Position numbers and translations under genes: made by a program
Assembly: GCA_964434715.1 (NCBI GenBank)
Contig: CAYSWC010000003.1
Span: 6,652-70,651, forward strand
DNA length: 64,000 nucleotides
Direction: 5' to 3'
Origin: an uncultured Candidatus Saccharibacteria bacterium
GTDB taxonomy: Bacteria > Patescibacteriota > Minisyncoccia > UBA6257 > 1-14-0-10-40-38
In this document: piece by piece, positions 3,193-58,092 of the stretch
Position numbering within the stretch: the stretch's first letter is position 1
How the letters are laid out: every line of letters starts with the position of its first letter
The notes under the pieces: generated by a model
Told to the model about the DNA's origin: nothing
Seen by the model: only the letters and a program-made list of their open reading frames with translations
The model's database searches: none

Positions 3193-3194
3193 TT

Positions 3195-6057: not shown

Positions 6058-6101
6058 ATTTAAATTTCGTATATTCGTAATAATTTCGTATTTCGTAGCC
6101 T

Positions 6102-19371: not shown

Positions 19372-19454
19372 AGGGACATTGTTTAGCTGGCATAGACTGG
19401 CTAAACAATGGCTCTTCGAAAATCCATTATTTCCCCTTTTTAAGGAATGTTGTG

Positions 19455-19784: not shown

Positions 19785-19966
19785 TAAGGCGCTAGCCGAA
19801 GGCCGACCCACCAAACCGGAAGGGGAAAGACAATGCCATTCCTCTGATGAAAGACGAAACTTCGGAGTCACAACCCCGAAATGGCTCCAATCCTACTGAA
19901 GGGGATCTCGGGTTGCGGCAGGGGCGCCTGACCGTGTAAAAGTAAACTTCAAATTAGAGACGCACT

Positions 19967-20005
19967 CCGCCTAAATCCAACGCAGGGTTTAGGCGGACTT
20001 TTTTT
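19967..20005 (+). terminator. Rho-independent terminator
   Basis: CCGCCTAAA-tccaacgcaggg-TTTAGGCGG, then acTTTTTTT. Confidence 0.8.
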
Positions 20006-20037
20006 ATCTTTAAAAAGGTAGTAGAATATCCAGCAAT

Positions 20038-20112
20038 GGTGGGTGTAGCTTAGTGGTAAAGCGCCGCTCTGTGGCAGCGGTGATGAGGGTTCGATTCCCT
20101 TCACCCACCCCA
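20038..20112 (+). tRNA. tRNA-His (anticodon GTG) with encoded G-1 and CCA
   Basis: G-1, then GTGGGTG/CACCCAC acceptor, C73, D arm GCTT-AGTGGTA-AAGC, anticodon arm CCGCT-CTGTGGC-AGCGG, 3' CCA encoded. The 3' end overlaps the recombinase stop region by 12 nt. Confidence 0.9.
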
Positions 20113-21717: not shown

Positions 21718-21719
21718 AA

Positions 21720-21911
21720 TTATTGTGTTTTTACTTTATCCAAAAACTTCTTAAATTCGCTCTTGCCTATGCGAAATTCCTTGCCGATTTTATACGCCTT
21801 AACCTTGCCCGATTTTATGTAGCGGTAAATCGTCATATGCGAAACCCGCAGGGCGTTAGCAAGCTCATCAACGAGGTAAAATTCTTGTTTGTTTTTTGTT
21901 TTATTCGGCAT
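21720..21911 (-). CDS. Excisionase/MerR-type HTH DNA-binding protein (63 aa)
   Basis: LVDELANALRVSHMTIYRYIKSGKVKAYKIGKEFRI matches the excisionase-family HTH pattern. It lies immediately upstream of the recombinase. Confidence 0.8.
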   Translation of the reverse strand: MPNKTKNKQEFYLVDELANALRVSHMTIYRYIKSGKVKAYKIGKEFRIGKSEFKKFLDKVKTQ

Positions 21912-21994
21912 AGTAATAATTGGTAGCTATATTGATGTAATCCTTATTTTCTGATTATAAACGATAATAGCATACTTAACAATGGTTTACAAGC

Positions 21995-23131: not shown

Positions 23132-23318
23132 AGTAGCCAGTTTCTTTACGCCGCTTTTCAACCATTTTGAACTCATCCTCGGTCATCGGTTTATAGACAA
23201 GCTCAACCAGACGAAATAATTTCGTCCCTTGTTCCAGAGCTTCCTCTCGGCTGATTTCTTTGCCAAAACGCTTTTTGTAAAGTATTTGGAATTTTCTGAT
23301 TTGCTCGTCCGATAACAT
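23124..23318 (-). CDS. Small hypothetical protein (64 aa), translationally coupled to the Rep-like gene
   Basis: ORF ending ..GYYD with its stop inside the ATGATTGA overlap. Confidence 0.4.
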   Translation of the reverse strand: MLSDEQIRKFQILYKKRFGKEISREEALEQGTKLFRLVELVYKPMTEDEFKMVEKRRKETGYYD

Positions 23319-23437
23319 ACCCTAACTTTAGAAGACGAGGCGATACGCTTTACATAATCTCTTGCTACAATTCGCAAACAAAAAACGGCTTGTTTTTAGC
23401 CGCTTCTCAAAAACTTATTAACACTATGAGAGGAGTA

Positions 23438-25132: not shown

Positions 25133-25233
25133 ATGTATGGTAATCGTAATTTTTAAGTAATTGTTTGCAGACAGTTTCCTTCTGCTGTATGCTTGATGTT
25201 AAGCAATGTGAGGTAAAAAATCAATATCAATCT

Positions 25234-25371
25234 ATGGTAATGGTAAGCGGAGGGTCATCAGACCCCGAACTTAAAAAGGAAGTAAAGAAAGGCACAAAGT
25301 GGAATATCGCAGGCGTGGTCGTTGGGTTAATCGCAATAGTCGTAACTATATTGCTGGCTATTTTTCTATGA
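25234..25371 (+). CDS. Possible small membrane peptide (45 aa)
   Basis: MVMVSGGSSDPELKK..WNIAGVVVGLIAIVVTILLAIFL has one TM helix. No good RBS. Confidence 0.25.
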   Translation: MVMVSGGSSDPELKKEVKKGTKWNIAGVVVGLIAIVVTILLAIFL

Positions 25372-25553
25372 GCAAAAAACTTCCAGAATTACTAACCCTC
25401 CGAGAAGCGTGTGGTATTTTGAAGTGCCACCCGAACACTCTGCGGCAGTGGGACAAGAAGGGCATTTTAATCGCTGTCCGTTTTGGCGAGAGAAAAGATA
25501 GGCGTTATCGCAAAGAAGATATTTTTAAGTTATTAAATCAGAAAAAACGATGA
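25368..25553 (+). CDS. MerR/excisionase-type HTH protein (61 aa), candidate controller of the R-M genes
   Basis: ATG at 25368. LLTLREACGILKCHPNTLRQWDKKGILIAVRFGERKDRRYRKEDI is an HTH_17-like pattern. Confidence 0.7.
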   Translation: MSKKLPELLTLREACGILKCHPNTLRQWDKKGILIAVRFGERKDRRYRKEDIFKLLNQKKR

Positions 25554-25608
25554 CATAAATTTTTATTACAACTTGCCTAAACCTTTAACGAGGCATGGCA
25601 CAAAAAAT

Positions 25609-25752
25609 CCACTGCGACATAGAGACGGCCACCCGTCTCCCATCATGTCGCAGTGGTCGGTAGCCCGAAAGGGTTATCGGGCAGTTCCGAAAGGAGCTGT
25701 CGGGGGTAACGGATGGCCTTTTCTGTTACTCCAAGAAAAAACCACTGCGACA
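25609..25752 (+). promoter_or_regulatory. Highly structured leader / operator region upstream of mod
   Basis: 12-bp stem CCACTGCGACAT (25609-25620) / ATGTCGCAGTGG (25645-25656) enclosing GAGACGG-CCAC-CCGTCTC. Two GAAA-tetraloop hairpins follow. CCACTGCGACA is repeated at 25741-25751 just before the mod ATG. Confidence 0.5.
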
Positions 25753-25754
25753 AT

Positions 25755-27254
25755 ATGAGTAAAAAAATAGATTTGCAATCGGCTCTTACACCAGCCGATA
25801 TAAAATTAACGCAAAAACTTCTTAAGGAGAATGAAGCTCTTAAGAAGGAAATTAAACATCTCAAATCACGCAAAAAGTATGGTCTTGTTTGGGATAGCGA
25901 AAAAGAGCCAGAAAAAGTAGTTGAGCTGTGCAAAGACAAATTACCTGTTCTGGCCGAAGACCAAGACAGAGAGATTGAAACGGATAAAGAGAAGCCCGTG
26001 AATGTTCTCATTGAGGGTGATAATTACCATGCCCTCTCTGTCTTAAATTACACTCATAACGAAAAAATAGATTTGATTTACATAGACCCGCCCTACAACA
26101 CTGGGAGCGAGGGTTTTATGTATAACGACAAAATTGTAAATCGTGAGGACTCATACAGGCACAGCAAATGGATTAACTTTATGGATAAGAGGTTGCGGCT
26201 GGCTAAAAATCTCCTGAAAAAAGATGGGGTAATTTTAATAAATATAGACGATAACGAGATAGCTCAACTTAAATTGCTGTGCGATGAAATCCTCGGCGAG
26301 GATTACTTCAGAAACACTGTAATTTGGTCATATCGCACTGGTGGAGCACCGCATAAAAATGACGCTTTCTCCAGAAAGCACGACTATATCCTTTTATATT
26401 CTCGCTCAAAAGAATACTTTTTTAATAGATTTAAGGAGAAAATTCCCTACGAAAAAGATTTTTTCGGTGCGAAAAAAGATGAGACGGGCAAGTTTTATGC
26501 TGATGTAAATTTGCGAGATGTAATTGAGGGCGACATCATCCTTTTCAAAGACGGTAAAGAGTATAAGAAGATAAGCGTTAAACCAGTTCTCAATTTATCC
26601 AGCGAAAGAGTTGAGGATTTCCCAACCCAAAAACCTATCGGGTTAATTAAGTATTTTCTTGAGATATTAAGCAGACCCAATGCGACTATTTTGGATTTTT
26701 TTGCTGGTTCGGGTAGCACTGGACACGCTGTTTTGGATTTGAATAAAGAAAATAAAGACAAACGACAATTTATTTTATGCACAAATGACGAGAACAATAT
26801 CTGCACAAAAGTATGCTATCCGAGATTAAAAAGAAATATCGTTGGCTTCGCAAAGGACAATGGCAAAAAAGTTGCTGGTCTCGGCGGCAATCTTAAATAC
26901 TTCAAAACCGATTTTGTTGATAACGCCACAACCGATAAAAATAAGAAAAAGCTCGTTGATAAATCAACCGAAATGCTCTGCCTGAAAGAAGATTGTTTTG
27001 AAAAAGTGAAATCGGGCAAGAGCTTCAATGTTTTCAAAAACCCCAAAGAAAAATATCTCGGCATAATTTATGACGATGATGGCATTGAGGGTTTTAAGAA
27101 AGAAGCGAAAAAGCTCAACAAAAACTTCTCGGTCTATGTTTTCTCGCTTGATGATAGTGCGAGAGAGGAAGAATTTGAGGACATCAAAGATTTGGTTGAA
27201 TTAAAGCCAATTCCTGCGGTCATATTAAATGTCTATAAACGCATATTCAAATGA
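25755..27254 (+). CDS. mod: Type III restriction-modification methyltransferase (Mod)
   Basis: ATG at 25755 (MSKKIDLQ). DPPY motif in IYIDPPYNT precedes the AdoMet motif FFAGSGSTG (beta-class order). Overlaps res by 4 nt. Confidence 0.85.
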   Translation: MSKKIDLQSALTPADIKLTQKLLKENEALKKEIKHLKSRKKYGLVWDSEKEPEKVVELCKDKLPVLAEDQDREIETDKEKPVNVLIEGDNYHALSVLNYTHNEKIDLIYIDPPYNTGSEGFMYNDKIVNREDSYRHSKWINFMDKRLRLAKNLLKKDGVILINIDDNEIAQLKLLCDEILGEDYFRNTVIWSYRTGGAPHKNDAFSRKHDYILLYSRSKEYFFNRFKEKIPYEKDFFGAKKDETGKFYADVNLRDVIEGDIILFKDGKEYKKISVKPVLNLSSERVEDFPTQKPIGLIKYFLEILSRPNATILDFFAGSGSTGHAVLDLNKENKDKRQFILCTNDENNICTKVCYPRLKRNIVGFAKDNGKKVAGLGGNLKYFKTDFVDNATTDKNKKKLVDKSTEMLCLKEDCFEKVKSGKSFNVFKNPKEKYLGIIYDDDGIEGFKKEAKKLNKNFSVYVFSLDDSAREEEFEDIKDLVELKPIPAVILNVYKRIFK

Positions 27255-29437
27255 TTAAACTAAAAGATTACCAACAACAGGCGGCAGACAATCTGCACCG
27301 AAAAATAGAGAACTCGTTGCGGTCATCCGAAAACGAGGTGGTTATTTTTCAAGCCCCCACTGGTTCGGGCAAAACCGTTATGGTGTCAGAGATGTTGAGG
27401 GAGCTTGTGAGAGGACGAAAGGACGACAAAAAGTTTTCATTCGTTTGGATTTCAGTAAGGATGTTGCACGAACAGAGCAAAGAAAAACTGGAGAAATACT
27501 ACGAAGACGATGGAACTCTTAAATGCTCATATTTTGAAGATTTGGAAGACAGAAAAATTGCTGAAAACGAAATCCTGTTTATTAACTGGCATAGTATAAA
27601 CAAAAAAGATATTAACATTTTTGTCAGAGAAAACGAGCAGGACAATAACCTCAACACCATCATTAAAAGAACTAAAGATGATGGCAGGATAATTGTTTTA
27701 ATCATAGACGAGAGCCATCACACGGCTGGCTCGGAGAAGTCCAGAGAACTGATTGAGGTTATTAGCCCGAAGGTAACTTTAGAGGTTTCCGCCACGCCGC
27801 ACTTGGAAGAAAGTGCCGCCGAAAAAGAAAAAGTCCGTCTGTCCGATGTTAAGGCGGAAGAAATGATTAAATCCGAAATATCCGTAAATCCAGAATTTCT
27901 GGATATTAAAGTTGGCACGAAAAGCTCTAATGAGATTGTCATTGAGGAAGCTCTTAAAAAGCGAGAGGAGCTGGCCAAGATGTATAAGCAAGAAAAGGCG
28001 AAAATAAACCCGTTAATGCTTATTCAGCTTCCCGATAACAAAGCTGGCCTCACGAGCAAGAAAGAGGAAGTGATAAAGATTTTGGATAAAAGAGGTATAA
28101 CAGAAAAGAACGGCAAGCTCGCAATATGGTTGTCCGAGGATAAATCTGAAACCCTGCCGAACATTGAAAAGAACGAAAACGAGGTTGAGATTTTGATATT
28201 CAAGCAAGCCATTGCTCTTGGTTGGGATTGCCCCAGAGCTTCAATTCTGGTTATTTTCAGGGAGTCAAAGAGTTTTACTTTCACTATCCAAACAATCGGC
28301 AGGATAATGCGTATGCCAGAGCTGAAGTATTACTCAAAAGAGCCAGAACTTAATAAGGGCTTTGTTTTCACGAATTTAGCGAAGATAGAAGTTACAGAAG
28401 AATATGCAAAAGATTATGTTACGCAATACGAAGCAAAAAGAGATAATAAGCTCTATAAAAGATTTACTCTGCCCTCAATCTACTTGAGGCGGCAAAGAGA
28501 GCGAACCCGCTTATCGGGGGAGTTTGGCAAATTCTTTTCGGCTATTGCAAAAAGCAATGGTTTGCAACAAAAAGTAAATCCCAAGCCATCAAAAATTATC
28601 AGCCCCATAATCGCCGAAGGCAAAATTGTTGATATTGATAAATCTGGCGAGATAGAACACAAAGGCACAATCAACATAGCTCTAAACGAAAAAGAACTAC
28701 AAGAAAAGTTTGATAAGTTTATCGTCCAAAATTGCACTCCTTACGCTCCCGCCGACTCCAGCGACAGAATGAAAACCGCACTTTACCAGTTTTTCAATCA
28801 AGAGTTTGGTTTTGCAAAATATGACCCGAAAGTGCAGGCCATAGTGCTTGGCCAAGAAAATGTCCAGCTTTTTATAGACACTATCAATCTGGCAAAGGAG
28901 AAATACAAAAAAGAGGTTGTTGAGAAGCTGGCCGAGAAAAGAGAGCTAACCGAAACGCCAGAGTGGGAAGTGCCGATTGTTATTACTTACAACAGCCGAT
29001 ACCAGCAGGAAGACCAGCCGCTATCCGTTATGAAGCCGTTTTATACAGCCAAGCAGAGCGAGCCAGAAAAATTGTTTATTGAGTTTTTGAATGGTTCAAA
29101 AAAGGTTAAGTGGTGGTTTAAGAACGGCGAAGGAGAAATAAAGTATTTTGCCGTGTTAAGGCCAGATGACCAAGCGTTTTATCCCGATTTTATTATTCAG
29201 CTTAAAGATGGGACGATAGCGATATTTGATACGAAATCAGGGAGAACCGCCGAAACTGGAGACGCCGCACCCAGAGCCGAGGCATTGCAGAAGTTTATCA
29301 AGAAGCAAAATAAGAGCGGCAAAAAGTTAATAGGCGGAATTGCCATTTATGTTAATGGCACTTGGCGATACAACGACAACGAAAAATACGAATATAACCA
29401 GAAGGACTTATCAAAGTGGAAGGTTTTAGATTTATAA
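27251..29437 (+). CDS. res: Type III restriction enzyme Res subunit (helicase plus PD-(D/E)xK nuclease)
   Basis: SF2 motifs APTGSGKT and IIDESHH. C-terminal nuclease-like YPDFII..IFDTKSG. Confidence 0.85.
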   Translation: MIKLKDYQQQAADNLHRKIENSLRSSENEVVIFQAPTGSGKTVMVSEMLRELVRGRKDDKKFSFVWISVRMLHEQSKEKLEKYYEDDGTLKCSYFEDLEDRKIAENEILFINWHSINKKDINIFVRENEQDNNLNTIIKRTKDDGRIIVLIIDESHHTAGSEKSRELIEVISPKVTLEVSATPHLEESAAEKEKVRLSDVKAEEMIKSEISVNPEFLDIKVGTKSSNEIVIEEALKKREELAKMYKQEKAKINPLMLIQLPDNKAGLTSKKEEVIKILDKRGITEKNGKLAIWLSEDKSETLPNIEKNENEVEILIFKQAIALGWDCPRASILVIFRESKSFTFTIQTIGRIMRMPELKYYSKEPELNKGFVFTNLAKIEVTEEYAKDYVTQYEAKRDNKLYKRFTLPSIYLRRQRERTRLSGEFGKFFSAIAKSNGLQQKVNPKPSKIISPIIAEGKIVDIDKSGEIEHKGTINIALNEKELQEKFDKFIVQNCTPYAPADSSDRMKTALYQFFNQEFGFAKYDPKVQAIVLGQENVQLFIDTINLAKEKYKKEVVEKLAEKRELTETPEWEVPIVITYNSRYQQEDQPLSVMKPFYTAKQSEPEKLFIEFLNGSKKVKWWFKNGEGEIKYFAVLRPDDQAFYPDFIIQLKDGTIAIFDTKSGRTAETGDAAPRAEALQKFIKKQNKSGKKLIGGIAIYVNGTWRYNDNEKYEYNQKDLSKWKVLDL

Positions 29438-29440
29438 TTT

Positions 29441-29800
29441 ATGTTAAACTTTAATCCTAAAAAGTGCCTTTGCAATGTTGCTGATTGTGGTAAATGCTTA
29501 ACTTTGGGGTGCACGGATGATAGTTGTAGCACTCACCGCATAGTAACAAAATGGCGGTATAGAAAACGCCTTTTAGAAAGTTTAAGAAGTGATGTTGGAA
29601 AGTGGTGCACTGATTATAGTTGTAACATTCACCGCATAACAACAAAAAGGCGGTCTATAAAATACCCTTTGAAAGTTTTGTTGCGGAGTATGGTCGGGGG
29701 GATTAAATCAAAAAGAGAAGCGGCGACTTTGAGAAAAGATATAAAAACCTGCGAAGAAGAAATTAAGCGGTTGAGCGAGGTTATGAGTATCAAACAATAA
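29441..29800 (+). CDS. Cys-rich hypothetical protein with internal duplication (119 aa)
   Basis: Two copies of C-[TD]-D-x-S-C-x-x-H-R-I-x-T-K-x-R (CTDDSCSTHRIVTKWR / CTDYSCNIHRITTKRR). Starts 4 nt after the res stop. Confidence 0.5.
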   Translation: MLNFNPKKCLCNVADCGKCLTLGCTDDSCSTHRIVTKWRYRKRLLESLRSDVGKWCTDYSCNIHRITTKRRSIKYPLKVLLRSMVGGIKSKREAATLRKDIKTCEEEIKRLSEVMSIKQ

Positions 29801-29823
29801 TGAGCAGTAAGGTTGAGTAAAAA

Positions 29824-30099
29824 ATGATTATGAAAAAGAAACCAAAAGTTGAGATAACCGAAATCACCTCTGATAAGAAAATCTCCTTTAGGCAATTTAA
29901 GGCGGCAAATAAAGAAGAACTGCTAACTCACGCCATTGCTAAAAAACAACTGATTTCTAATGGCACATTCACCCGCTCCAAGCTCCAAAAGCTCGTTGAT
30001 GAAAAGGAACTTCACGAGGTTGTATTCGCTGGTGCGATTTACTTTGAAAGAGATGAGGTCTCAAGTTATCTTAAAAACTTAATTAGTAAAAAGAAGTAG
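29824..30099 (+). CDS. Hypothetical protein (91 aa), possibly DNA-binding
   Basis: ORF only. The C-terminal AIYFERDEVSSYL resembles excisionase-type HTH tails. Confidence 0.35.
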   Translation: MIMKKKPKVEITEITSDKKISFRQFKAANKEELLTHAIAKKQLISNGTFTRSKLQKLVDEKELHEVVFAGAIYFERDEVSSYLKNLISKKK

Positions 30100-30135
30100 T
30101 GAGTAGTAGTGGGATAAAATAATAATAATTTCTAA

Positions 30136-30330
30136 ATGGAAAATACTGATATTACACTTGAAAAAAGAGTAAAGATTGTTATGGGAGCGTTTACTGTCCT
30201 TGTTTTATTTCTAATTTATCATCTCGCAGTTTTAATGTCGGTAGCACCCGACTTTCTTGAAGCGAAAATTGCTCACGCCCCTACGCCACAATGGGCTGAT
30301 ATACAAAACCTAATGGAGGCGATGAAATAG
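30136..30330 (+). CDS. Small membrane protein (64 aa)
   Basis: One TM helix (IVMGAFTVLVLFLIYHLAVLM). Confidence 0.4.
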   Translation: MENTDITLEKRVKIVMGAFTVLVLFLIYHLAVLMSVAPDFLEAKIAHAPTPQWADIQNLMEAMK

Positions 30331-30378
30331 TAAGTAGCGAGGTGGGGTAAATTTCTGGTATGATGGGACTTATTGACT

Positions 30379-30873
30379 ATGGAGCAAAAAGATATAAAAC
30401 AGCTTATCAAGGCAATAATAGCAGTTGGGGTGTTGTTGTTGCTTATTGTTATCGTCAAGCCGCAAAACTACATAAAGATTTCAGACAACCCACCCGCCGA
30501 AAAGAAACCCAAACCCCTAGACAACGGATGTTTTATTTTCTTAACATTGAGCCAGCATGGGGACATTAACCTGCCAGTAGGGACGATTTTTGGCTACCCA
30601 ACCGAAACTCACGGCAACATTTACGACATTATCAGAGACGACACCTTTATAATGTCCGCTTACCTCATAGAAAGTTTTGAGAAGGATTTTAGGTGTTTTG
30701 AGACAGAGGAAGAAGCAGTGGCGGCGGGCTATACGAAGTTTTTAACTGACCAAGCGGCACGCAAGAAAAGGCGAGAAGAAGCAAAGAAATTCTTGGATGA
30801 ACTGCGGGAAGGGGGCAGTGCAACTGACACAGCTAAAACATTACAATCCATAGACGCTATGATTGGTTTTTGA
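30379..30873 (+). CDS. Membrane-anchored hypothetical protein, paralog 1
   Basis: ATG at 30379 (MEQKDIK). Shares SQHGDINLPVGTIFGYP..NIYDIIRDDTFIMSAY..KDFRCF.TEEEA..GY.KFL..QAARKK with the next gene. Confidence 0.55.
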   Translation: MEQKDIKQLIKAIIAVGVLLLLIVIVKPQNYIKISDNPPAEKKPKPLDNGCFIFLTLSQHGDINLPVGTIFGYPTETHGNIYDIIRDDTFIMSAYLIESFEKDFRCFETEEEAVAAGYTKFLTDQAARKKRREEAKKFLDELREGGSATDTAKTLQSIDAMIGF

Positions 30874-30916
30874 AGAAATAGTGAGTATGAGTAGCAGGGT
30901 GGGGTAAAATAAAACT

Positions 30917-31390
30917 ATGACCATAAAAAGATTTATCGTGCTGTTCATCTACGCCATTTCAGCGATGTTTGTTTTAGTTATTGTTCTGACTATTTGGAGT
31001 TCAGAGCCAACAGGACAATACGCCGAGCATATACCTGATAATAATTGCCCTGTTTTCTACACAGAAAGCCAACACGGAGACATTAACCTTCCAGTAGGGA
31101 CAATTTTCGGATACCCAGCTAAATCTGGTGAAAACATTTACGACATTATCAGAGACGACACCTTTATAATGTCCGCCTACTTCATAAACAGTTTCAATAA
31201 GGATTTTAGATGTTTTAAGACCGAGGAAGAAGCTATAGCAATGGGCTATAAGAAATTTTTAAGTAATCAGGCGGCTCGGAAAAAAGCGAGGACTGAAGCC
31301 GAGGAGCGGCTGAATAAGCCGTGGGGAGAACGCAACACAACCGACACCACTCAAATATTGCGAGACATAGACGCTATGATTGGTCTTTGA
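30917..31390 (+). CDS. Membrane-anchored hypothetical protein, paralog 2
   Basis: See 30379-30873. Both end with ..DIDAMIG[FL]. Confidence 0.55.
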   Translation: MTIKRFIVLFIYAISAMFVLVIVLTIWSSEPTGQYAEHIPDNNCPVFYTESQHGDINLPVGTIFGYPAKSGENIYDIIRDDTFIMSAYFINSFNKDFRCFKTEEEAIAMGYKKFLSNQAARKKARTEAEERLNKPWGERNTTDTTQILRDIDAMIGL

Positions 31391-31486
31391 AACAATAGTG
31401 AGTTGAGGGGTAGGGTAAGTTTGCGTTTTATCTTCGCAGGTGATAACCTAAAATCACAATGCAACTACAATCGTTTAGAAGATAAA

Positions 31487-31536
31487 AACCGCCAAAAAAA
31501 ACAACCTTATCAAGTTGTGCTTCTTGGCGGTTTTTT
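31487..31536 (+). terminator. Two-tier hairpin terminator
   Basis: AACCGCCAA..ACAAC-cttatcaa-GTTGT..TTGGCGGTT followed by TTTTTT. Confidence 0.7.
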
Positions 31537-31544
31537 ATTTATTT

Positions 31545-31615
31545 GCCCTCGTAACTCATCGGTAGAGTGCTGGTCTGAAAAGCCAGATAAGTTGGTTCAA
31601 CTCCAACCGAGGGCA
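31545..31615 (+). tRNA. tRNA-Phe (anticodon GAA), second copy with different sequence
   Basis: Acceptor GCCCTCG/CGAGGGC, D arm ACTC-ATCGGTA-GAGT, anticodon arm CTGGT-CTGAAAA-GCCAG (A37), T arm GTTGG-TTCAACT-CCAAC. Confidence 0.85.
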
Positions 31616-31618
31616 CAC

Positions 31619-31691
31619 GCCCTTGTAGCTCAATGGATAGAGCGAGCGTTTTCTGAACGCACGGTTGCGGGTTCAAATCCTGCCGAGGGCA
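31619..31691 (+). tRNA. tRNA, probably Arg (anticodon TCT), second copy
   Basis: Acceptor GCCCTTG/CGAGGGC, D arm GCTC-AATGGATA-GAGC, anticodon loop TTTCTGA (TCT with G37), T arm GCGGG-TTCAAAT-CCTGC. Confidence 0.7.
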
Positions 31692-31818
31692 CTATCAAAG
31701 TTTCTCAAATCGGGTATGTAGATATACTCATTTTGTCGTTGTATAATGGTTCTAACATCCTCTACGATTTGACCCCTAAAGGAAGCAGGAGGCGCGTCAC
31801 TCATGTTAAAATATAACC

Positions 31819-51438: not shown

Positions 51439-52341
51439 ATGACTTCAGCCGAAAAATTGCTTAGAGAATATTTAGATTATTTGGAAATCGAGAAAAACCG
51501 TTCCATTAAGACCCGCGGTAATTACGAACGTTACTTGCGGACTTTTTTTAAGCAGGCCGGCATCAAAGACCTAAACCATATTACCGCCGATTCGGTAAGA
51601 AATTTCCGCTTGAAACTGGCGCGGCTTAAAGGGGGAGACGGCGAATTCTTAAAGAAAAACACTCAAAGTTATTATGCCATTGCCATTCGGAATTTCTTAA
51701 AATACTTAATAAAAAAAGATTATCAAGTCCTCTCGCCGGACAAAATTGAACTGCCGAAACTCCCTGAACGCCAGATTGAAATTATTGATTATGCTGATTT
51801 AGAAAGGTTGCTCCAAGCGCCCAAAGGCAGTAATTTAAGGAACTTACGCGACCAAGCTATTTTAGAGACGCTTTTTTCTACCGGCCTCCGGCTCTCTGAA
51901 CTCTGCGGGCTTAGCCGCTATCTGGATTTTGGGCGCGGTGAAATCACCGTGCGCGGCAAAGGAGAAAAACTGCGGCTGGTTTTTATCTCGGCTAGAGCCA
52001 AAAAATCTTTGAAAAATTATTTGGAAAAGCGCGGCGATGCTGACGAAGCTTTGTTTATAAGCTTAACTAAAAAAGGACAGGCGATTGGCAGGATTACGCC
52101 GCGGGCAGTGCAGAGATTAATAGATCGCTATGCCAGGCAAGCGGGCATTGGCAAACGGGTTACGCCCCATAGCTTCCGGCATGCTTTTGCAACTGATTTG
52201 TTAATTAACGGCGCTGATCTTCGTTCGGTTCAGGAACTCTTGGGCCACAGCCATATCTCGACCACCCAAGTTTATACCCATCTAACCAATAAAGAACTCC
52301 GGGAAGTTCACCGCGCTTTTCACGCCCGCCGAAGAAGATAG
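51439..52341 (+). CDS. Tyrosine recombinase, XerC/XerD-like
   Basis: SAM-like N-domain (YLDYLEIEKNRS..T..Y). Catalytic R (TGLRLSE), HSFRHAFAT and GHSHISTTQVYTH. Start is at 51439 or 51427; the ORF-track start at 51235 is unsupported. Confidence 0.85.
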   Translation: MTSAEKLLREYLDYLEIEKNRSIKTRGNYERYLRTFFKQAGIKDLNHITADSVRNFRLKLARLKGGDGEFLKKNTQSYYAIAIRNFLKYLIKKDYQVLSPDKIELPKLPERQIEIIDYADLERLLQAPKGSNLRNLRDQAILETLFSTGLRLSELCGLSRYLDFGRGEITVRGKGEKLRLVFISARAKKSLKNYLEKRGDADEALFISLTKKGQAIGRITPRAVQRLIDRYARQAGIGKRVTPHSFRHAFATDLLINGADLRSVQELLGHSHISTTQVYTHLTNKELREVHRAFHARRRR

Positions 52342-52351
52342 ATAGCTATAG

Positions 52352-52433
52352 TGTCGGGAGGGAGATTCGAACTCCCATGGATTGCTCCGCTGGGTCCTAA
52401 ACCCAGTGCGTCTACCAATTCCGCCATCCCGAC
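52352..52433 (-). tRNA. tRNA-Leu (anticodon TAG)
   Basis: Acceptor GTCGGGA/TCCCGAC, GGCGGAATTGGTAGACGC D region, anticodon arm CTGGG-TTTAGGA-CCCAG, long variable arm, T arm GGGAG-TTCGAAT-CTCCC. Confidence 0.9.
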
Positions 52434-52478
52434 AAAGGGTTTACAACCAGCAAAACATATACTATACTAAACTCCAAT

Positions 52479-52643
52479 ATGTCCGAAGATAAAGATTTTG
52501 AAAATTTATTGCAAGATGCCCTTAATAAGTTTATAACCGAAACCGAACGTTTAAAGCAAGAGCATCGGGCTGAAATTGAAAAGATTTTAAAGGAGGTCAA
52601 AGCCCGCAAACTAGAAGCTGTTAAAAAAGATTTAGGTATTTAA
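52479..52643 (+). CDS. Small coiled-coil protein (54 aa, below the ORF-track cutoff)
   Basis: My translation: MSEDKDFENLLQDALNKFITETERLKQEHRAEIEKILKEVKARKLEAVKKDLGI. Ends 4 nt before the next ATG. Confidence 0.45.
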   Translation: MSEDKDFENLLQDALNKFITETERLKQEHRAEIEKILKEVKARKLEAVKKDLGI

Positions 52644-52647
52644 ATTT

Positions 52648-54804
52648 ATGGCTAATCCAGAAAAATTGTCGTCCCCATCAGGGCCGCAGAAAGAAGGAGT
52701 TCCAGAAAAAAAAGAGCTTTGGGTGCCAGCAGAACTAAGGGAAGAAAAGAAGTCCACCCCGAAAACGCCGGAACCTTCCAGGATTGATCCGGCAATAACG
52801 TGGGGCCAGGTGGAATCTAAAACACCGATACCTCCGAAAGAGGAAGCTAAACCCAAGAAAGAAGAAGCTAAATCTAAAGAACTTTGGGTGCCGCCGGAGA
52901 TAGAGTCGCCGCGGATGGAGGATATAAGACAAGCACTTCAAGAAGCTGAAGTTGAAGCCAAAGAAGGCAAGGCCAAAGTAGAAGCGGTCGGCGGAACGCC
53001 GGAAGAGATGAAAGGGGCCGAGGTAGCTGGAGAGAAAAGAATAACAGGCGTCAAAGAGGCAAGCGAAACCGCCATTAAAAACAGCATCCCGATGTTTGAG
53101 GGCCGGATTAGGGTTCTTAGAGAAAAAGTTGCCGAGACATCTAGGCGGGGCAAGGAGACAGAAGTGCTTAAACTTGAAGAGCAAATCCGAACTTTTGAAA
53201 GACGCAAAAGGGAGTTTGAATTGGAGCCGGAGAGGCGGAGATTGCGTGAAGCCGTGAAAGAAGCACAAGCTCGCGGCGTTGAATCGGAAATCTTAAAAGC
53301 CGAAGAACGTCTTCGTGCCGTTGAAGGCGAGCAATATAAAACCAGACAAAAGTCGGCAGCCACCGCCGTCGCTAAAGAGTCGGCAGAAGAAAAACCGGCA
53401 ACAACCCCAGAGGCTCCTATTGACAAACTGCCGCCGGAAACAGAAGATTTTCTTGGTAATGTTGAAAGACGCAGATTGCGCGAAGCCGAAAGACCAAAAG
53501 AAAAAGCTCCGGCCGCCGAAGGGGTCCGGCCGCCGGAAGTTGAGAAGGCAGAAGGCGAAAAACTAAAGGAAAAGACGCCGGAGGTAAAATTCACCACCGC
53601 CGCCAATCAAAAACTTTTTGATAAACTGCCGCCGGAAACAAAAAATTTTCTTGGCCGGCTCTACGAACGGGTTCATCCCACATTCATTGATCGCGCTAAG
53701 ATTTGGTTCAATGATCATCTTCCCATTTTTGGTTCGGAACGCTCACCTTTTGGCTTAAAACATCATGAGAAAAAAGCCGCAAAGATTGCGAGCGAACTTG
53801 AAGCAACCAATAGCGAAATTAAAAGCAAAGAAAGTCAGCTGGGAACCTATGAGGCAACAGTAAAATCGCTTGAGGCAAGAGGCGGCGAGTTTTCAGCCGG
53901 GGAAAGAGCAGTTGCCGAGCGGGAACGGCGTGAATTAGAGCGAGACCTTGAAGCTCTTAAAAACAAGCGCGATCGCGAGCAAACAGAGCTGGAATACCGA
54001 AATAGCAAAAAAGCCATCTATGAAAATAAGCGTAAAGAAATAGTTGAGGATGTTTCCGGACGCATCAAGGAACGGCTCAAACCCTACGAAGAGAAAATAG
54101 AAGATTTACGCGCCCGCAAAGAGCAGTTTGACGCCGAAGCTAAAGCTTTTGCCGAAAAAAAAGAGGCTTTTGCCAATCAGATAAAAACCATTGAGGAAGA
54201 AAGGAAAAAAGCGGTTTTCCATTTTGAACGGCAAAGATTGGGTAGAGACATTAAAGAATTAATGAAAGAACTGCGGCTAAGCGAGAATCTCTTCAAAGAA
54301 CGTCTGGGAAGCCGTATTAAAATTGAACTTCAATTAGTTAATTTAAATCGTAAAGCTGGTCACTGGCGCGATACCCTAAATGAATTCGCCAGAGTTTCGC
54401 AAAGAAATGTTGCCTATGAGCAAGTCGGCGCCCGCGCCGAGGAAGGGCTGGATTTGAAACGGGCACAAGTATTGCGTGAACGCGGGACAGCGGCCGCGGC
54501 TCCGTCGGGGACCGAACAGGCAAAGGCACGAGAAGCTAAAGAAGTTAAACCGCGTACCATGTCGGTGGGGGCCTATCTTGGCCAGTGGAATAAATATTTT
54601 GGCAGTGAACTCCCGGTGCGTGAAGACGTCTTTTTTAAAACCTTGGGCGTGAGCGACCAGGAAAAACCTCTAAGCGAGTTAGGGTTTGATCTGCGGACTT
54701 ATTATGATTTTATGAGAAGTCACGGCAATACTGATCGCCGTCTCACTAAGCCCAAGCTTATAGAAAAAATTAAAATCCTAGAAACTTTCATTACTAAACC
54801 TTAA
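52648..54804 (+). CDS. Large Glu/Lys/Arg-rich coiled-coil protein (718 aa)
   Basis: Low-complexity helical sequence. Internal repeats KELWVP[AP]E[LI] (x2) and DKLPPET[EK][DN]FLG (x2). No enzymatic motif. Confidence 0.55.
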   Translation: MANPEKLSSPSGPQKEGVPEKKELWVPAELREEKKSTPKTPEPSRIDPAITWGQVESKTPIPPKEEAKPKKEEAKSKELWVPPEIESPRMEDIRQALQEAEVEAKEGKAKVEAVGGTPEEMKGAEVAGEKRITGVKEASETAIKNSIPMFEGRIRVLREKVAETSRRGKETEVLKLEEQIRTFERRKREFELEPERRRLREAVKEAQARGVESEILKAEERLRAVEGEQYKTRQKSAATAVAKESAEEKPATTPEAPIDKLPPETEDFLGNVERRRLREAERPKEKAPAAEGVRPPEVEKAEGEKLKEKTPEVKFTTAANQKLFDKLPPETKNFLGRLYERVHPTFIDRAKIWFNDHLPIFGSERSPFGLKHHEKKAAKIASELEATNSEIKSKESQLGTYEATVKSLEARGGEFSAGERAVAERERRELERDLEALKNKRDREQTELEYRNSKKAIYENKRKEIVEDVSGRIKERLKPYEEKIEDLRARKEQFDAEAKAFAEKKEAFANQIKTIEEERKKAVFHFERQRLGRDIKELMKELRLSENLFKERLGSRIKIELQLVNLNRKAGHWRDTLNEFARVSQRNVAYEQVGARAEEGLDLKRAQVLRERGTAAAAPSGTEQAKAREAKEVKPRTMSVGAYLGQWNKYFGSELPVREDVFFKTLGVSDQEKPLSELGFDLRTYYDFMRSHGNTDRRLTKPKLIEKIKILETFITKP

Positions 54805-54807
54805 ACT

Positions 54808-55053
54808 ATGAATATCTCTAAATCTACTAATACCAATAGTGCTTCAGAGCAAGCCGAGCGTCTGCTTCGCGAAATGAGAGCGGCTCGCGAGGATTTTACC
54901 AAGAAAACCGACCGGCTTTTGAGTGATATGAATCAAGATCTTAAAGCGGCCAAAAAAGAGCTGGACGGGGCTGATAGAGATTTGAAAAAGCTGGAAAAAC
55001 AAACAGTGGCCGAAATGGACGCGGCGGTGCTTGATTTTATCTCCGAAAAATAA
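54808..55053 (+). CDS. Small coiled-coil protein (81 aa)
   Basis: ORF directly following the 718-aa gene. Helical and charged. Confidence 0.45.
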   Translation: MNISKSTNTNSASEQAERLLREMRAAREDFTKKTDRLLSDMNQDLKAAKKELDGADRDLKKLEKQTVAEMDAAVLDFISEK

Positions 55054-55079
55054 GAGGGAATCACTCAAAAATCTCCCGC

Positions 55080-55108
55080 TTGACAGCGAGCTTATATTTT
55101 GCTATAAT
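55080..55108 (+). promoter_or_regulatory. Consensus promoter TTGACA-17-TGcTATAAT
   Basis: TTGACA at 55080-55085 and TATAAT at 55103-55108. Followed by the hairpin CCTAAGAT-tgg-ATCTTAGG. Confidence 0.65.
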
Positions 55109-55203
55109 TACCGCAATCCTAAGATTGGATCTTAGGAGGTTCTTTGAAATCAATCCAAAGGGAACATAGATATGGCTCGCAAGAGCCGGAAAGGACTGAA
55201 CCG

Positions 55204-55866
55204 ATGAGCTTTTTTAAGGATTTGGGACGAGAAGTGAAAAGCTTTATTGCAGAAGCCAGCGGCAGTGCCACTGGCACGGCTGTTGGTCATGTCGTCGGTG
55301 CCGGTGTCAAAACCGGACCCGCCGCCACCGCTGCCGCCGGAGCTAGGCCTGCTGCCACCGCTGCCGCCGGCGTGGGGATCGGCGCGGCGATCGTCCGGTT
55401 TCTGAGCAACAAGTGGACTCTGGAGAAGAAACGTTCGGTAGTCGCTTGGGCCCGGCTCGAGCTGCGAAAGCAGACGAGGGTAGACGAGAAGAGGACGAGA
55501 GTTCTAGCGGCGGACGGAGAACCAGGCGTATTACAAGAAACGACGGAGGTATTCGGACCGCCGACAAAGTTCGACGAGTGGCTTGATAGAGCCACGGCTG
55601 AAAATCAGGAGGATGCCGTGGTTGATGCCCTTTGTCTTCTCATTCCTGACGAGTTGCCGACGGAGAGACCGGAGCAAATCCGTCAGGATTTTCTGGTCAT
55701 TCTCCGCGACGCGCTGAAGCTCCCGAGCTACGAGGAGTTCCGGAGCTGGATTGCCACCCTGGAGCGAGACTTCGTGCGTCAGTGGTTGAGGAAGTGGGAT
55801 GGCGAGGCAAGCGTTGGCCTCAAGAAGTTCCGTGAGTGGCTCAATCAAAGGGGGATCCGGAGATGA
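55204..55866 (+). CDS. GC-rich orphan protein (220 aa) with Ala/Gly/Thr-rich N-terminal region
   Basis: ATG at 55204 (MSFFKDLGREV) after GGAAAGGA. An alternative TTG at 55144 follows AGGAGG. The tandem PAATAAAG repeat has no family match that I recognise. Confidence 0.5.
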   Translation: MSFFKDLGREVKSFIAEASGSATGTAVGHVVGAGVKTGPAATAAAGARPAATAAAGVGIGAAIVRFLSNKWTLEKKRSVVAWARLELRKQTRVDEKRTRVLAADGEPGVLQETTEVFGPPTKFDEWLDRATAENQEDAVVDALCLLIPDELPTERPEQIRQDFLVILRDALKLPSYEEFRSWIATLERDFVRQWLRKWDGEASVGLKKFREWLNQRGIRR

Positions 55867-56780
55867 ACCAGACCATAGGACAGCTCTTCGAGATCTTCAA
55901 GGACGTCTGGGCCACCGGCAACCGGTGGATCCGCTGGGCCGTTGGCTTTATCGTTCTCTGGCCGCTTGCCCTTGTGGTCATCGCTCTTTTGAGCGGTGAT
56001 CCCAGAGACCTCGCGGACCAAAGCGGTTTCTGGAATTTCTCCCAGCCGAACATCATCCTCGCGCTTCTGCCTGCCGCCGCCGCTTTCTGCGTCTTCATGC
56101 TTTGGTTTGACCCCATGCTCCTCGTAGCCATCGGGATTCCTGATGGGGGAAGAGCACTGCTTCGCTGGCTCGCTTTGATGATCGGAATGCAGGAGGCCAT
56201 CGGCCTCTACTTAGTAATCGTTCCGATCAAAACCGACCCCGGCCTAGTGTTGCTGCTTCTCCTTGCCGTGGCTACGCTTCTCTTTCTGGGCATGGGGCTG
56301 GGCATGCGACTGGCGGGCTTTGCCAGATTCGTATTTGGCTTGGTCTCAATCGGCGCCGTCCTGCTCACCCTCGTTTTCCTTTTGGGCGGACGAAGCGGGG
56401 TGGCTACGAAGTGGAATGCGGTCAGCAAGACCGCCGCAGCCGCGCCAGCCGTATCAAGGGCAAGCACTCCAGCTCCACCGCCGCCGCTAACCATTAGGGC
56501 AGACCGCGAGGGCTTTGTAGAAGTTCCGCGCGGCACGCCGATGGTTACGGTACCCGTCAGTCCCGATCGATGGAGCTCGTGGCTTGTCCTCGAGGGGAGG
56601 TGCGAAACTAACATCACCTACGAGGATGATTCCAAAAAGCCGGAGCTCAAGGTCTGGGGCAGGAAAGGGGTAAGAATCTTGCCGCCGGACCGATCGGATG
56701 AGGGCGTGAGCGACGACGTCCAGAAACTCTGCTTCCGTGGACCAGCACAAGTAGTCAAGATCTACTTCAACTGGCGGTAA
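55863..56780 (+). CDS. GC-rich orphan polytopic membrane protein (305 aa)
   Basis: ATG overlaps the upstream stop (ATGA). About six hydrophobic helices are followed by a ~100-aa soluble tail. Confidence 0.55.
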   Translation: MNQTIGQLFEIFKDVWATGNRWIRWAVGFIVLWPLALVVIALLSGDPRDLADQSGFWNFSQPNIILALLPAAAAFCVFMLWFDPMLLVAIGIPDGGRALLRWLALMIGMQEAIGLYLVIVPIKTDPGLVLLLLLAVATLLFLGMGLGMRLAGFARFVFGLVSIGAVLLTLVFLLGGRSGVATKWNAVSKTAAAAPAVSRASTPAPPPPLTIRADREGFVEVPRGTPMVTVPVSPDRWSSWLVLEGRCETNITYEDDSKKPELKVWGRKGVRILPPDRSDEGVSDDVQKLCFRGPAQVVKIYFNWR

Positions 56781-56843
56781 AGCAGAAAGAATCTCTTTGG
56801 AGGAAACCAGAACCGAAACGTTCTTTCACAACCTGTGTAGCAA

Positions 56844-56878
56844 ATGGCCCCAAGGGAAAAAACCCAAGGGGCCATTTT
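56844..56878 (+). terminator. Rho-independent terminator
   Basis: ATGGCCCC-loop-GGGGCCAT followed by TTTT. Confidence 0.75.
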
Positions 56879-56916
56879 ATATAATAAAATAAGGATAAAG
56901 AAGCTAGTACGGTAAC

Positions 56917-57255
56917 CTACAACGGTACCTGAAGCAATTGTCTGACAATAGCCACTATTGCTCGGGCAAGAAAGGCGATGATAATGGCTATCACAGCATA
57001 GACAATCCATTGGCGCGCTTTTTTAACCTTTTCCTCGTCGCCGCCAGAGGTAAGATACAGGAAAGCGGCGTAGATAATGAAAAGTGCCGCAATAGCCAGA
57101 AGCAATCCAAAAGCCCAATTCAATATAGCGGTAACAATCAGACTTACAGTAACGTCTCCTTTTACTTCAACCTCATCAACTATAATTTGGGCTCCGGTAA
57201 AAAGCGGCAAAGCCAGCAATATTCCCAGAACAATAACTGAACTGATTTTGGACAT
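56917..57255 (-). CDS. TrbC/VirB2-like pilin-type small membrane protein, paralog 1
   Basis: Signal peptide plus two helices with a TSGGDEEKVKKARQWIVYAVIAIIIAFLA motif (xGG..E....K.....Y.A.IG-like). Confidence 0.55.
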   Translation of the reverse strand: MSKISSVIVLGILLALPLFTGAQIIVDEVEVKGDVTVSLIVTAILNWAFGLLLAIAALFIIYAAFLYLTSGGDEEKVKKARQWIVYAVIAIIIAFLARAIVAIVRQLLQVPL

Positions 57256-57316
57256 AATTTCTATCTCTTATAGATGCCACAATGCGCTCGACCTTTGAAT
57301 TAATTATATATCTTTT

Positions 57317-57628
57317 TTAGTCCGCTCCAAAAAATTCCCTGACCGTAAGAACAATTGCCCGCGATAGAATCAGTACTATTAAGCCGATAACTGCGTAGGT
57401 TATAGTTTTTTTCCCTTTTTCAAATTGTTCTTCACTGCCGCCGGCAGTAATGATCTGAAAAGCGGCAAAAATAATAAAAAGCGTAGCAATGGCAATTCCC
57501 AAACCAACTGATTTGCCGACCAATTCCTTGAGAATATCGCTCAATTCCCGGCTGGTGCCGGTGTGGGTAGTAGTATGGTCGGCAAAAGCAATCTCTAATA
57601 AAAATAACTTTTCCAGGATTTTAATCAT
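57317..57628 (-). CDS. TrbC/VirB2-like pilin-type small membrane protein, paralog 2
   Basis: TAGGSEEQFEKGKKTITYAVIGLIVLILS motif. Confidence 0.55.
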   Translation of the reverse strand: MIKILEKLFLLEIAFADHTTTHTGTSRELSDILKELVGKSVGLGIAIATLFIIFAAFQIITAGGSEEQFEKGKKTITYAVIGLIVLILSRAIVLTVREFFGAD

Positions 57629-58071
57629 TATTTAGTTAATTGTTCACCGGTAATCAGTTCATAGACAAAACCCACAATGGCGCCGGCAAGAAGCGCGATG
57701 GTCACCCCGATGACTGCGGTTGCGATAATCGCCCTGCCTTTCTGAAATTTCTCCGCCGATCCGCCAGCGGTGATTATAACATAAGCCGCCCAAATTACCA
57801 TGAGCGTTGCCACGGGAATCACGACCGTTTTAGCAAGAAAGTCAATAATCGCTTTTAAAAGAACTATAAAATCGTCGAGGCCGCAGCCCTGCTCGTGTTT
57901 GGGCGGCAGATCGGGAAAACAGTTTAAATCTTGTCCGAAGAGCGTAAGCGGCTTATGTTCAGGATCATGATGGGCTAAAGCCGCAGGCGCGGCCAAGAAA
58001 GAAAACAAAATAAAAAACAAGACCAGAAACTTATAGAAATTTATAGGAACCGGGAGAAATTTATTTTTCAT
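57628..58071 (-). CDS. TrbC/VirB2-like pilin-type small membrane protein, paralog 3
   Basis: TAGGSAEKFQKGRAIIATAVIGVTIALLA motif, with a longer N-terminal region. Confidence 0.55.
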   Translation of the reverse strand: MKNKFLPVPINFYKFLVLFFILFSFLAAPAALAHHDPEHKPLTLFGQDLNCFPDLPPKHEQGCGLDDFIVLLKAIIDFLAKTVVIPVATLMVIWAAYVIITAGGSAEKFQKGRAIIATAVIGVTIALLAGAIVGFVYELITGEQLTK

Positions 58072-58092
58072 TTTAATTTTTAAATTCTTATC

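Follow-up and report, generated by a model that had tools for sequence, protein, structure and literature searches.

A candidate two-gene envelope module beside VirB2-like pilin arrays in genomes of the candidate phyla radiation

In a stretch of 64,000 nucleotides (nt) from an uncultured Candidatus Saccharibacteria bacterium (GenBank assembly GCA_964434715.1, contig CAYSWC010000003.1; referred to as a whole as the window), two overlapping open reading frames (ORFs) of high guanine-cytosine (GC) content, ORF1 (55204–55866, +) and ORF2 (55863–56780, +), are found next to three VirB2-like pilin genes. Comparative sequence analysis indicates that both belong to previously unannotated families which are restricted to the candidate phyla radiation (CPR), co-inherited and linked to pilin arrays, and we regard it as highly probable that the two genes form a conserved, native pair and not a cassette of foreign origin. 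From our point of view, the pair is best described as an envelope module of two genes, restricted to CPR and genetically linked with VirB2-like pilin arrays, a functional reading to which we would assign a probability of about 0.5; that the two proteins actually act together with the pilins is, at best, an even bet. A preceding sequence-only reading of the same DNA had called the function of the pair unrecognisable, and it is indeed the case that no annotated family matches either protein.

Results

Conservation of the pair in related genomes

An exhaustive phmmer search with the concatenated ORF1 and ORF2 proteins as query (E ≤ 1e-3) returned 133 cluster representatives, every one of which matched residues 1 to about 200 of ORF2 (best match 46% identity, E 4.5e-28), and zero relatives of ORF1. 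The family was exposed by this approach only, as a word-indexed search of 5.8 billion proteins returned for ORF1 and ORF2 nothing apart from themselves, and a profile search returned four proteins. By a profile search built on a 12-sequence family alignment, 10 related loci were found, nine of which are independent (L011 duplicates L003). Among these, L002 and L003 come from metagenome-assembled genomes (MAGs) of Candidatus Azambacteria, L004 from MAG DBS2-1.bin102, L005 from an NCBI MAG contig, L006 and L007 from Logan contigs and L008 to L010 from metagenome contigs.

The survey of homolog neighbourhoods that the sequence-only reading had proposed gave a uniform picture. In 9/9 independent loci the ORF2 homolog lies immediately 3' of an ORF1-like gene encoding 200–306 residues, with the two genes overlapping by ATGA or TAATG or directly abutting. 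The upstream genes of the relatives share the motif ...FRxWLNxKG(I/V)(R/K)R in a terminal or near-terminal position and, since the motif is conserved in L005 to L007 even though it is internal there, it is a feature of the protein. Wherever the contig continues, pilin genes follow: convergent PF18895 pilin genes are located 3' of the pair in L003/L011, L004, L005, L006, L007 and L010 as well as in the window, which corresponds to six out of six independent relatives with more than about 300 nt of contig beyond the pair. The contigs of L002 and L009 stop right behind it, and in L008, where about 300 nt are left, one unassigned 80-residue ORF is present.

The 5' neighbour, by comparison, varies and is represented by S1 and FtsH in the Azambacteria-type loci, a Big_1 protein in L004, coiled-coil genes in the window and a tRNA-like sequence in L010. 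L004 keeps the order found in the window, namely Xer, pair, three pilins, solute-binding protein (SBP) and GyrA. Between the two genomes, the pilins (30–49% identity) and ORF2 with its ectodomain (27%) diverge fast when compared with Xer (67%) and GyrA (65%), and the SBP shows 42% identity. Among viral contigs, a profile search with the ORF2 family found no relatives.

The sequence-only reading had held that its proposal would fail if the homologs were widespread core membrane-biogenesis genes with conserved synteny and normal composition in related genomes. For the most part, this is what was observed: conserved synteny was found in related CPR genomes and normal composition in the Azambacteria-type loci and L010, whereas the pair is CPR-restricted instead of widespread and the composition of the window copy is truly anomalous.

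Just 5' of the pair, L004 additionally carries a gene (6060–6557) for a 165-residue protein ending in ...LELEKRGIKR, which looks like an ORF1-like paralog. It is followed by a gene (6789–7388) for a 199-residue Big_1 Ig-like protein, and the equivalent position in the window is occupied by three coiled-coil genes (52479–55053).

Base composition and origin of the window copy

As noted previously from the sequence, the composition of the pair differs sharply from that of its flanks. Both ORFs have a GC content of 0.588, with values at third codon positions (GC3) of 0.64 for ORF1 and 0.70 for ORF2, versus means of 0.443 (standard deviation 0.042) for GC and 0.451 (standard deviation 0.059) for GC3 among the 39 other genes of the window; this corresponds to z = 3.4 for GC and to z = 3.2 and 4.2 for GC3. 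The periodicity GC1>GC2<GC3 agrees with the called frames of both genes and, together with the existence of homologs, rules out that the ORFs arose by chance in GC-rich DNA. A chimeric assembly is unlikely, because a separate Logan assembly (L001, 7450 nt), made from run SRR8863434, matches positions 51967–59416 of the window letter for letter and hence reproduces both junctions of the GC-rich segment exactly. Since the amino acid sequences combined with host codon usage predict a GC content of only 0.53 for ORF1 and 0.51 for ORF2, roughly half of the excess is driven by amino acids and the rest is synonymous.

In L002, L003, L005, L009 and L010, GC and GC3 of the pair equal those of the neighbouring genes. 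The pair of L004 (7390–8789), from a genome of 39% GC, represents the GC3 maximum of its locus with 0.57 and 0.56 versus 0.24–0.47. A foreign signal shared by both copies should have decayed at 27% protein identity and would hence not account for this parallel excess. With respect to the features expected of a horizontally acquired islet, atypical composition and codon usage are present, the pair is not absent from the same site in a relative (L004), and no flanking direct repeats were found around it.

When the membrane domains were placed in an unbootstrapped neighbour-joining tree, the window copy grouped as sister of a clade of L002, L008, L009 and P0005 (38–40% identity), and L004 ranks 36th of 37 by distance from it. 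Trees of the ORF2 family further conflict with that of FtsH among the Azambacteria-type loci, which fits fast diversification or an exchange of alleles between relatives. The high GC content of the window copy is best fitted by replacement of a resident allele with that of a GC-richer relative, our preferred if unproven explanation, with a locus-specific bias as the alternative.

Family, fold and topology of ORF2

ORF2 encodes a protein of 305 residues that represents an unannotated family with five transmembrane helices. Its start codon is supported by the N-termini of the homologs, and the window copy contains the family residues W16, T18, G19, N20 and R24 (motif WxTGNRWxR), P34, A67, L68 and P70 (ALxP70), D83 and P84 (DP84), G96 and R97 (GR97), G114 and Y116 (GxY116) and P121 (VP121), as well as a GGR motif that is located after the last transmembrane helix (TM5). 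A Glu inside TM3 is conserved in 79% of the family, and the window copy shows Gln110-Glu111 at this place.

Searches of Pfam, PHROGs, NCBIfam and PADLOC gave no significant match for ORF1, ORF2 or the ORF1 homologs, and for the membrane domain shared by the approximately 133 ORF2-related representatives there was no match in Pfam, NCBIfam, PHROGs, PADLOC or PDB. Two sub-threshold matches, to DUF2417 (E 0.034) and to the pilus-stabilising protein TraP (E 0.034, 13.6 bits versus a cutoff of 177), were read as noise. A sequence profile search of PDB with the family gave 0 matches at E ≤ 10. The Foldseek search of the predicted ORF2 structure suggested in the sequence-only reading returned no match at E ≤ 1e-3 against PDB and BFVD.

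Hydropathy and AlphaFold2 agree on five transmembrane helices, an Ala/Pro linker and a beta domain of about 90 residues, so that the soluble C-terminal domain proposed earlier stands but the count of about six helices does not. The AlphaFold2 model, computed from a 77-sequence alignment, has a mean predicted local distance difference test score (pLDDT) of 81 and places helices at residues 2–43, 62–81, 94–119, 126–145 and 152–173 in addition to a juxtamembrane helix. In the model, and consistent with the loop charges of the family, residues 1–195 (55863–56447, +) would form the conserved part with a cytoplasmic N-terminal amphipathic helix, the five transmembrane helices and the juxtamembrane helix. 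Residues 217–305 (56511–56777, +) are predicted to form a small extracytoplasmic beta-sandwich, modelled with eight strands at 218–304, that is hypervariable in the family.

Behind the membrane domain, the tails are between about 80 and 350 residues long, and many of them carry a 'C...CWSGW...FRLRG' beta domain, to which the tail of ORF2 can be aligned by hhalign (E 4.6e-5 against the relatives' 'CWSGW' C-terminal domains). The tail of one family member contains an SLT lytic transglycosylase domain and that of another one an SH3_3 domain. In the former case (P0015, 424 residues), the SLT domain lies between the five-helix domain and the C-terminal beta domain, which places a VirB1-like chemistry on an ORF2-family anchor.

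For the ORF2 beta domain, the best structural lead is a weak one to the domain by which Clostridium perfringens enterotoxin binds its receptor (C-CPE; Foldseek E 0.09, probability 0.75, TM-score about 0.4 on the target). As in C-CPE and in domains resembling carbohydrate-binding modules, a small beta-sandwich ends a larger protein in ORF2; with 6–8% identity, the similarity is below significance and is to be taken as a lead for a 'binding domain' and not as membership.

Loops 2 and 4 carry a net positive charge when the whole family is considered and were therefore placed inside, and the number of cysteines in the tail is even in 40 members versus odd in 14. Since these loop charges, the mostly even cysteine counts and the SLT and SH3_3 fusions all point in the same direction, we infer that ORF2 spans the membrane five times with its N-terminus inside and its C-terminus outside, which would bring the predicted beta-sandwich to the surface.

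ORF1 and the short reading frame upstream of it

ORF1 encodes 220 residues with an N-terminal amphipathic helix, a Gly/Ala-rich segment, a charged helical domain and the conserved C-terminal motif KKFREWLNQRGIRR; the NCBI annotation starts the gene at TTG 55144 (240 residues). The tandem PAATAAAG stretch described earlier is encoded by a 30-nt direct repeat (55318–55370, +) giving the 10-residue units PAATAAAGAR and PAATAAAGVG, and its units at 55318–55340 and 55348–55370 are 91% identical.

The C-terminus, FREWLNQRGIRR, fits the family motif F-R-x-(W/F)-L-N-x-(K/R/H)-G-(I/V)-(R/K)-R. A hidden Markov model (HMM) built exclusively from the relatives' upstream genes identified ORF1 as its single match among the six-frame ORFs of the window (E 3e-4), and hhalign aligned the last 26 residues with those of the relatives' upstream genes (E 3.7e-5). 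Outside the last approximately 26 to 30 residues, neither hhalign nor hmmsearch found similarity. At the level of position and motif, ORF1 is hence an ortholog of these genes, with the remainder diverged past detection. Several relatives have paired small-residue hydrophobic helices at the place of the Gly/Ala-rich repeat of ORF1; L004 and L010 do not, and membrane insertion of ORF1 is therefore uncertain. ORF1 is probably a cytoplasmic, helical partner of ORF2. P0069 was considered as a natural ORF1-ORF2 fusion but is not relied on, as BLASTP gave E 0.01 across 38 residues only and the HMM of the ORF1 family found no match in it.

Upstream of ORF1 lies a short ORF (uORF) of 11 codons (55172–55207, +; MARKSRKGLNR) with its own Shine-Dalgarno-like site AAAGGGAA, the stop codon of which overlaps the ATG of ORF1 (ATGA). 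In a MAFFT alignment, the ATGGCT of the uORF is aligned with the start codons of the ORF1 homologs, and its peptide resembles their basic N-termini (MARRGRG.., MAKKG..). One inserted base (AACCG to AACCCG) fuses the uORF in frame to ORF1 and gives MARKSRKGLNPMSFFKD, comparable to MAKVEWGKLINPALSFFDKEF in L010; the sequence of this region is the same in the Logan assembly. BLASTP gave no significant support for such a frameshift, and the alignment is suggestive only. The uORF may represent the ancestral N-terminus of ORF1, stranded by a 1-nt deletion, in which case ORF1 would now be translated via re-initiation.

Transcription and translation signals

ORF1 and ORF2 form one transcription unit with strong consensus signals. 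The sigma-70-type promoter at 55080–55108 (+) consists of the -35 element TTGACA (55080–55085), a 17-nt spacer and the extended -10 element TGcTATAAT ending at 55108, and the perfection that had been ascribed to it holds for 12 out of 12 consensus positions. Perfect TTGACA-N17-TATAAT sites occur twice across the window and, when up to one mismatch is allowed, three sites are present versus 0.33 expected from shuffles. The promoters of the ORF1 homologs are TTGACT-17-TATAGT/TATAAG-like and located 85–100 nt 5' of the gene.

Close to the predicted transcript start, just 3' of the -10 element, the previously described leader hairpin (55117–55137, +) has a 9-bp stem and the 3-nt loop TGG, and its 3' arm includes part of AGGAGG. 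A role in, for example, the stabilisation of the mRNA can be imagined; folding of the whole leader is only modestly above shuffles (z -1.9). The hairpin is followed by the motif GGTTCTTTGAAATCAAT (55138–55154, +), which an alignment of nine upstream regions and the raw upstream sequences show to be common to the leaders of ORF1 homologs. Its consensus, GG(T/C)C(T/A)TTGA(A/C)AAyT.AATA, is found in the window, L002, L003 and L005 to L009 about 30–45 nt before the start of the ORF1 homolog and 3' of the conserved TTGACT-17-TATAxT promoter, and it could be a regulatory site. The leader has no match in Rfam, on which ground a riboswitch or known RNA was ruled out.

The coupling of the two genes by an ATGA overlap could be reproduced (ORF2 starts at 55863, ORF1 ends at 55866) and extends to a series in which each start codon overlaps the stop before it, uORF-ATGA-ORF1-ATGA-ORF2, which implies coupled translation in a fixed ratio. 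The Shine-Dalgarno site of ORF2, AAAGGGGG, is located within the codons of the conserved C-terminal motif of ORF1, and wherever a copy has the motif at its very C-terminus, the codons for K-G (AAAGGGGG) also serve as the Shine-Dalgarno site of ORF2. The unit is closed, as anticipated, by a strong intrinsic terminator (56842–56881, +) between ORF2 and the convergent first pilin gene, in which an inverted repeat forming a hairpin (56842–56877) precedes TTTTAT (z -4.7; 0/200 shuffles fold equally well).

Consensus promoters resembling that at 55080 exist at two further places in the window, 19343–19371 (+) and 3502–3530 (-), with near-identical sequences (TTGACACG..CT(T)ATACTATGCTAyAAT). They face stretches of about 300–650 nt in which neither a convincing ORF nor an Rfam match is present and which may encode stable or unknown RNAs.

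The pilin array and its surroundings

The three VirB2-like pilin genes (PF18895/PF04956; 56917–58071, -), a conserved downstream neighbour in relatives, are the only pilin-like ORFs of the window. Such arrays are described as widespread and variable in Patescibacteria, with VirB6 homologs scarce in some classes (PMC12102498), and VirB2-like pilins are reported to be essential in Southlakia, where they lie within a type IV secretion system (T4SS) cluster (PMC10633639). Term searches of these two articles found no mention of the ORF1-ORF2 pair. Among the large ORFs of the window there is a PilB-type T2SSE ATPase (1513–3192).

The pilin operon is headed by a gene for a membrane-anchored solute-binding protein of the SBP_bac_8 type both in the window (58093–59436, -) and in L004 (10506–11786, -), with no ABC permease gene near it in either of these syntenic genomes; a scan of genome contigs with the neighbouring SBP as query gave no match. 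In L003, the Azambacteria pilin array ends with a gene for a Cys-rich protein of 1543 residues (11739–16370, -) with a C-terminal segment of the VirB2-like pilin type, and this protein may combine a giant adhesin with a pilin module. GyrA comprises 1346 residues in the window (59523–63563, -) versus 813 in L004, a length consistent with insertion of an intein. On the other side of the pair, the 3' end of a tRNA-Leu gene (52351–52433, -) points away from it. An integrated element at tRNA-Leu/Xer was ruled out in view of the tRNA orientation, the absence of att-like repeats and the syntenic position of Xer in L004.

Other features of the window

Apart from the pair, the window contains a long perfect hairpin at 3192–3285 and a ribonucleotide reductase gene (15231–18917, -) with an intein that has a LAGLIDADG domain. 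Divergent tRNA-Phe(GAA) genes are located at 19152 and 31545 and two tRNA-Arg(TCT) genes at 14769 and 31619. The tRNA-Phe pair brackets a serine recombinase (20101–21717), proteins without assignment, a LOOT RNA (25574–25701), a DNA methylase and a ResIII helicase, and the bracketed stretch (19152–31692) may represent an integrated element that includes a restriction-modification system.

Discussion

The conservation of the pair next to the pilin arrays raises the question what its role could be. Most likely, it belongs to a cell-surface apparatus, and a toxin or defence function is most likely not its role. In the proposed arrangement, ORF2 would reside in the cytoplasmic membrane with its N-terminus inside, expose the amphipathic helix with the WxTGNRWxR motif on the cytoplasmic face, hold the conserved polar position within TM3 and present a small, quickly diversifying beta-sandwich outside the cell. 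ORF1, a helical protein that would be cytoplasmic or membrane-peripheral, would be made in a fixed ratio with ORF2, with its conserved basic C-terminal helix probably docking on the cytoplasmic face of ORF2. As such, the module could provide a membrane base, an anchor or a surface-recognition accessory for a VirB2-like pilus or another host-contact structure.

The nearest functional analogy for ORF2 would be the polytopic VirB6/TrbL-type proteins of T4SS. Like ORF2, these have about 300 residues, at least five transmembrane helices and an extracytoplasmic domain, are encoded beside VirB2-type pilin genes and can be imagined as membrane platforms for pilin assembly. In contrast to a genuine VirB6/TrbL protein, ORF2 shows no detectable similarity in sequence to them, nor in fold by a Foldseek search that is weak on helical bundles, its gene is convergent with the pilins and outside their operon, and among the large window ORFs scanned there was neither virB4 nor another T4SS gene. 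Classical T4SS furthermore have no counterpart of the ORF1-type gene that always accompanies ORF2. With regard to the pilin arrays of Patescibacteria (PF18895/PF04956), the pair is a constant neighbour, but ORF1 and ORF2 themselves are not pilins.

Several observations weigh against an envelope module that works with the pilins. Pair and pilins are convergent and hence not co-transcribed. No VirB4-type ATPase was present among the large window ORFs scanned, ORFs under about 300 residues being partly covered, and Pfam, PDB profiles and Foldseek revealed no similarity to pilus or T4SS components. All loci come from one region of the CPR tree (FtsH 62–88% identical), which means that inherited gene order may contribute to the adjacency. 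The homology of ORF1 consists of a motif of about 26 residues and the position of the gene, and its AlphaFold2 model, obtained from a fused ORF1 and ORF2 model, is poor (pLDDT 40–65). The charged juxtamembrane segment after TM5 of ORF2 is net positive, in mild conflict with an outside C-terminus. Lastly, the GC3 excess, which L004 shares, is not accounted for by vertical inheritance.

Among the other explanations that can be imagined, a pilin-independent role in the envelope or in housekeeping survives best, even if we consider it unlikely. The pair could, for instance, consist of a membrane-anchored protein that binds or remodels the cell wall and its cytoplasmic regulator, with the adjacency to the pilins reflecting inherited order. 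The close relationship of the Parcubacteria-type genomes that contain the loci, the presence of FtsH nearby in the window and the Azambacteria loci, the opposite strands of pair and pilins, and the SLT and SH3_3 fusions, which suggest peptidoglycan, would all be compatible with such a role. However, the 5' neighbours have been reshuffled while the 3' pilin array has been retained, and ORF2 and the pilins evolve much faster than their housekeeping flanks, as would be expected of one surface system.

Rather improbable, in our opinion, is the idea that the two proteins are highly diverged homologs of T4SS inner-membrane components, with ORF2 corresponding to a VirB6/TrbL/PrgH-type and ORF1 to a VirB3/PrgI-like protein. 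The size and polytopic nature of ORF2, its extracytoplasmic domain, the neighbouring pilins and the VirB1-like SLT domain of one family member would suit it, as would the statement in PMC12102498 that VirB6 is rare or missing in some classes of Patescibacteria, 'suggesting extreme sequence divergence'. Yet neither ORF1 nor ORF2 matched the Pfam families TrbL/VirB6 (PF04610), PrgH, VirB3 or PrgI at E ≤ 0.1, the same families were unmatched in 77 family members at E ≤ 1e-3, and NCBIfam and the PDB sequence profiles likewise yielded nothing. The membrane domain remained unmatched in the Foldseek search of PDB, a search that used the untrimmed model and is weak on helical bundles, and virB4 was not encountered among the large ORFs scanned.

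One could also speculate, with about as little confidence, that the pair supplies the membrane platform which the VirB2-like pilus of Patescibacteria is missing, and would be a functional analogue of VirB6 with a cytoplasmic adaptor and unrelated to it in sequence. In this scenario the neighbouring pilins would assemble on the pair, the hypervariable, exchangeable ectodomain would contribute to the host-cell specificity of an episymbiont, and the GC-rich allele of the window would be a recently imported specificity variant.

Considerably less probable is the module for immunity, toxicity or exclusion which the sequence-only reading had put forward as speculation. According to this, the pair would be a horizontally acquired toxin/immunity, abortive-infection or entry-exclusion cassette, in which a membrane-damaging protein and its soluble partner stem from a GC-rich donor. 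Toxin-immunity and defence cassettes indeed resemble the pair in having two small coupled genes, one of them for a membrane protein, a strong promoter and an atypical composition. The excess of 3–4 standard deviations in GC and GC3, the consensus promoter, the orphan status of both proteins in the word-indexed search, the variable surface domain and the grouping of the membrane domain with Azambacteria-type sequences instead of its syntenic counterpart L004 would fit such an origin. In every related locus, however, the pair is conserved and keeps its position with respect to the pilin array, and its composition is normal in five of them (L002, L003, L005, L009 and L010), so that the foreign composition pertains to the allele and not to the presence of the genes. 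In addition, PADLOC, PHROGs and Pfam gave no defence, phage or toxin match, relatives on viral contigs and flanking direct repeats or other signatures of mobility were not found, and the adjacent recombinase is the conserved, syntenic Xer. The module proposed from the sequence is hence unsupported, and we return to a native envelope module as the reading to be preferred.

A pilin maturation or insertion factor comparable to TraQ/TraX of the F plasmid or TraF of RP4, in which ORF2 would act as a membrane enzyme or chaperone through intramembrane polar residues, has the least in its favour, as the conserved D83-P84, G96-R97, TM3 Glu, Y116 and D125 in or at the edge of the membrane and the adjoining pilin genes are set against the lack of a match to TraX, signal peptidases or other enzyme families, the Gln of the window copy at the conserved Glu position with Glu one residue on, and a hypervariable ectodomain that would be unusual in a processing enzyme.

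VirB2-like pilin arrays rank among the surface features that are most widespread in Patescibacteria and were essential in the one species tested (PMC10633639), and VirB6-type components are often not found in these single-membrane cells (PMC12102498). The ORF1-ORF2 pair provides a concrete and testable accessory candidate for the assembly or anchoring of the VirB2-like pilus in CPR bacteria, and it adds two new protein families to be included in T4SS and pilus censuses of CPR genomes. Should the link to the pilins turn out to reflect inherited gene order only, the analysis would still have removed a false call of a 'foreign toxin cassette' and documented a fast-evolving family of surface proteins.

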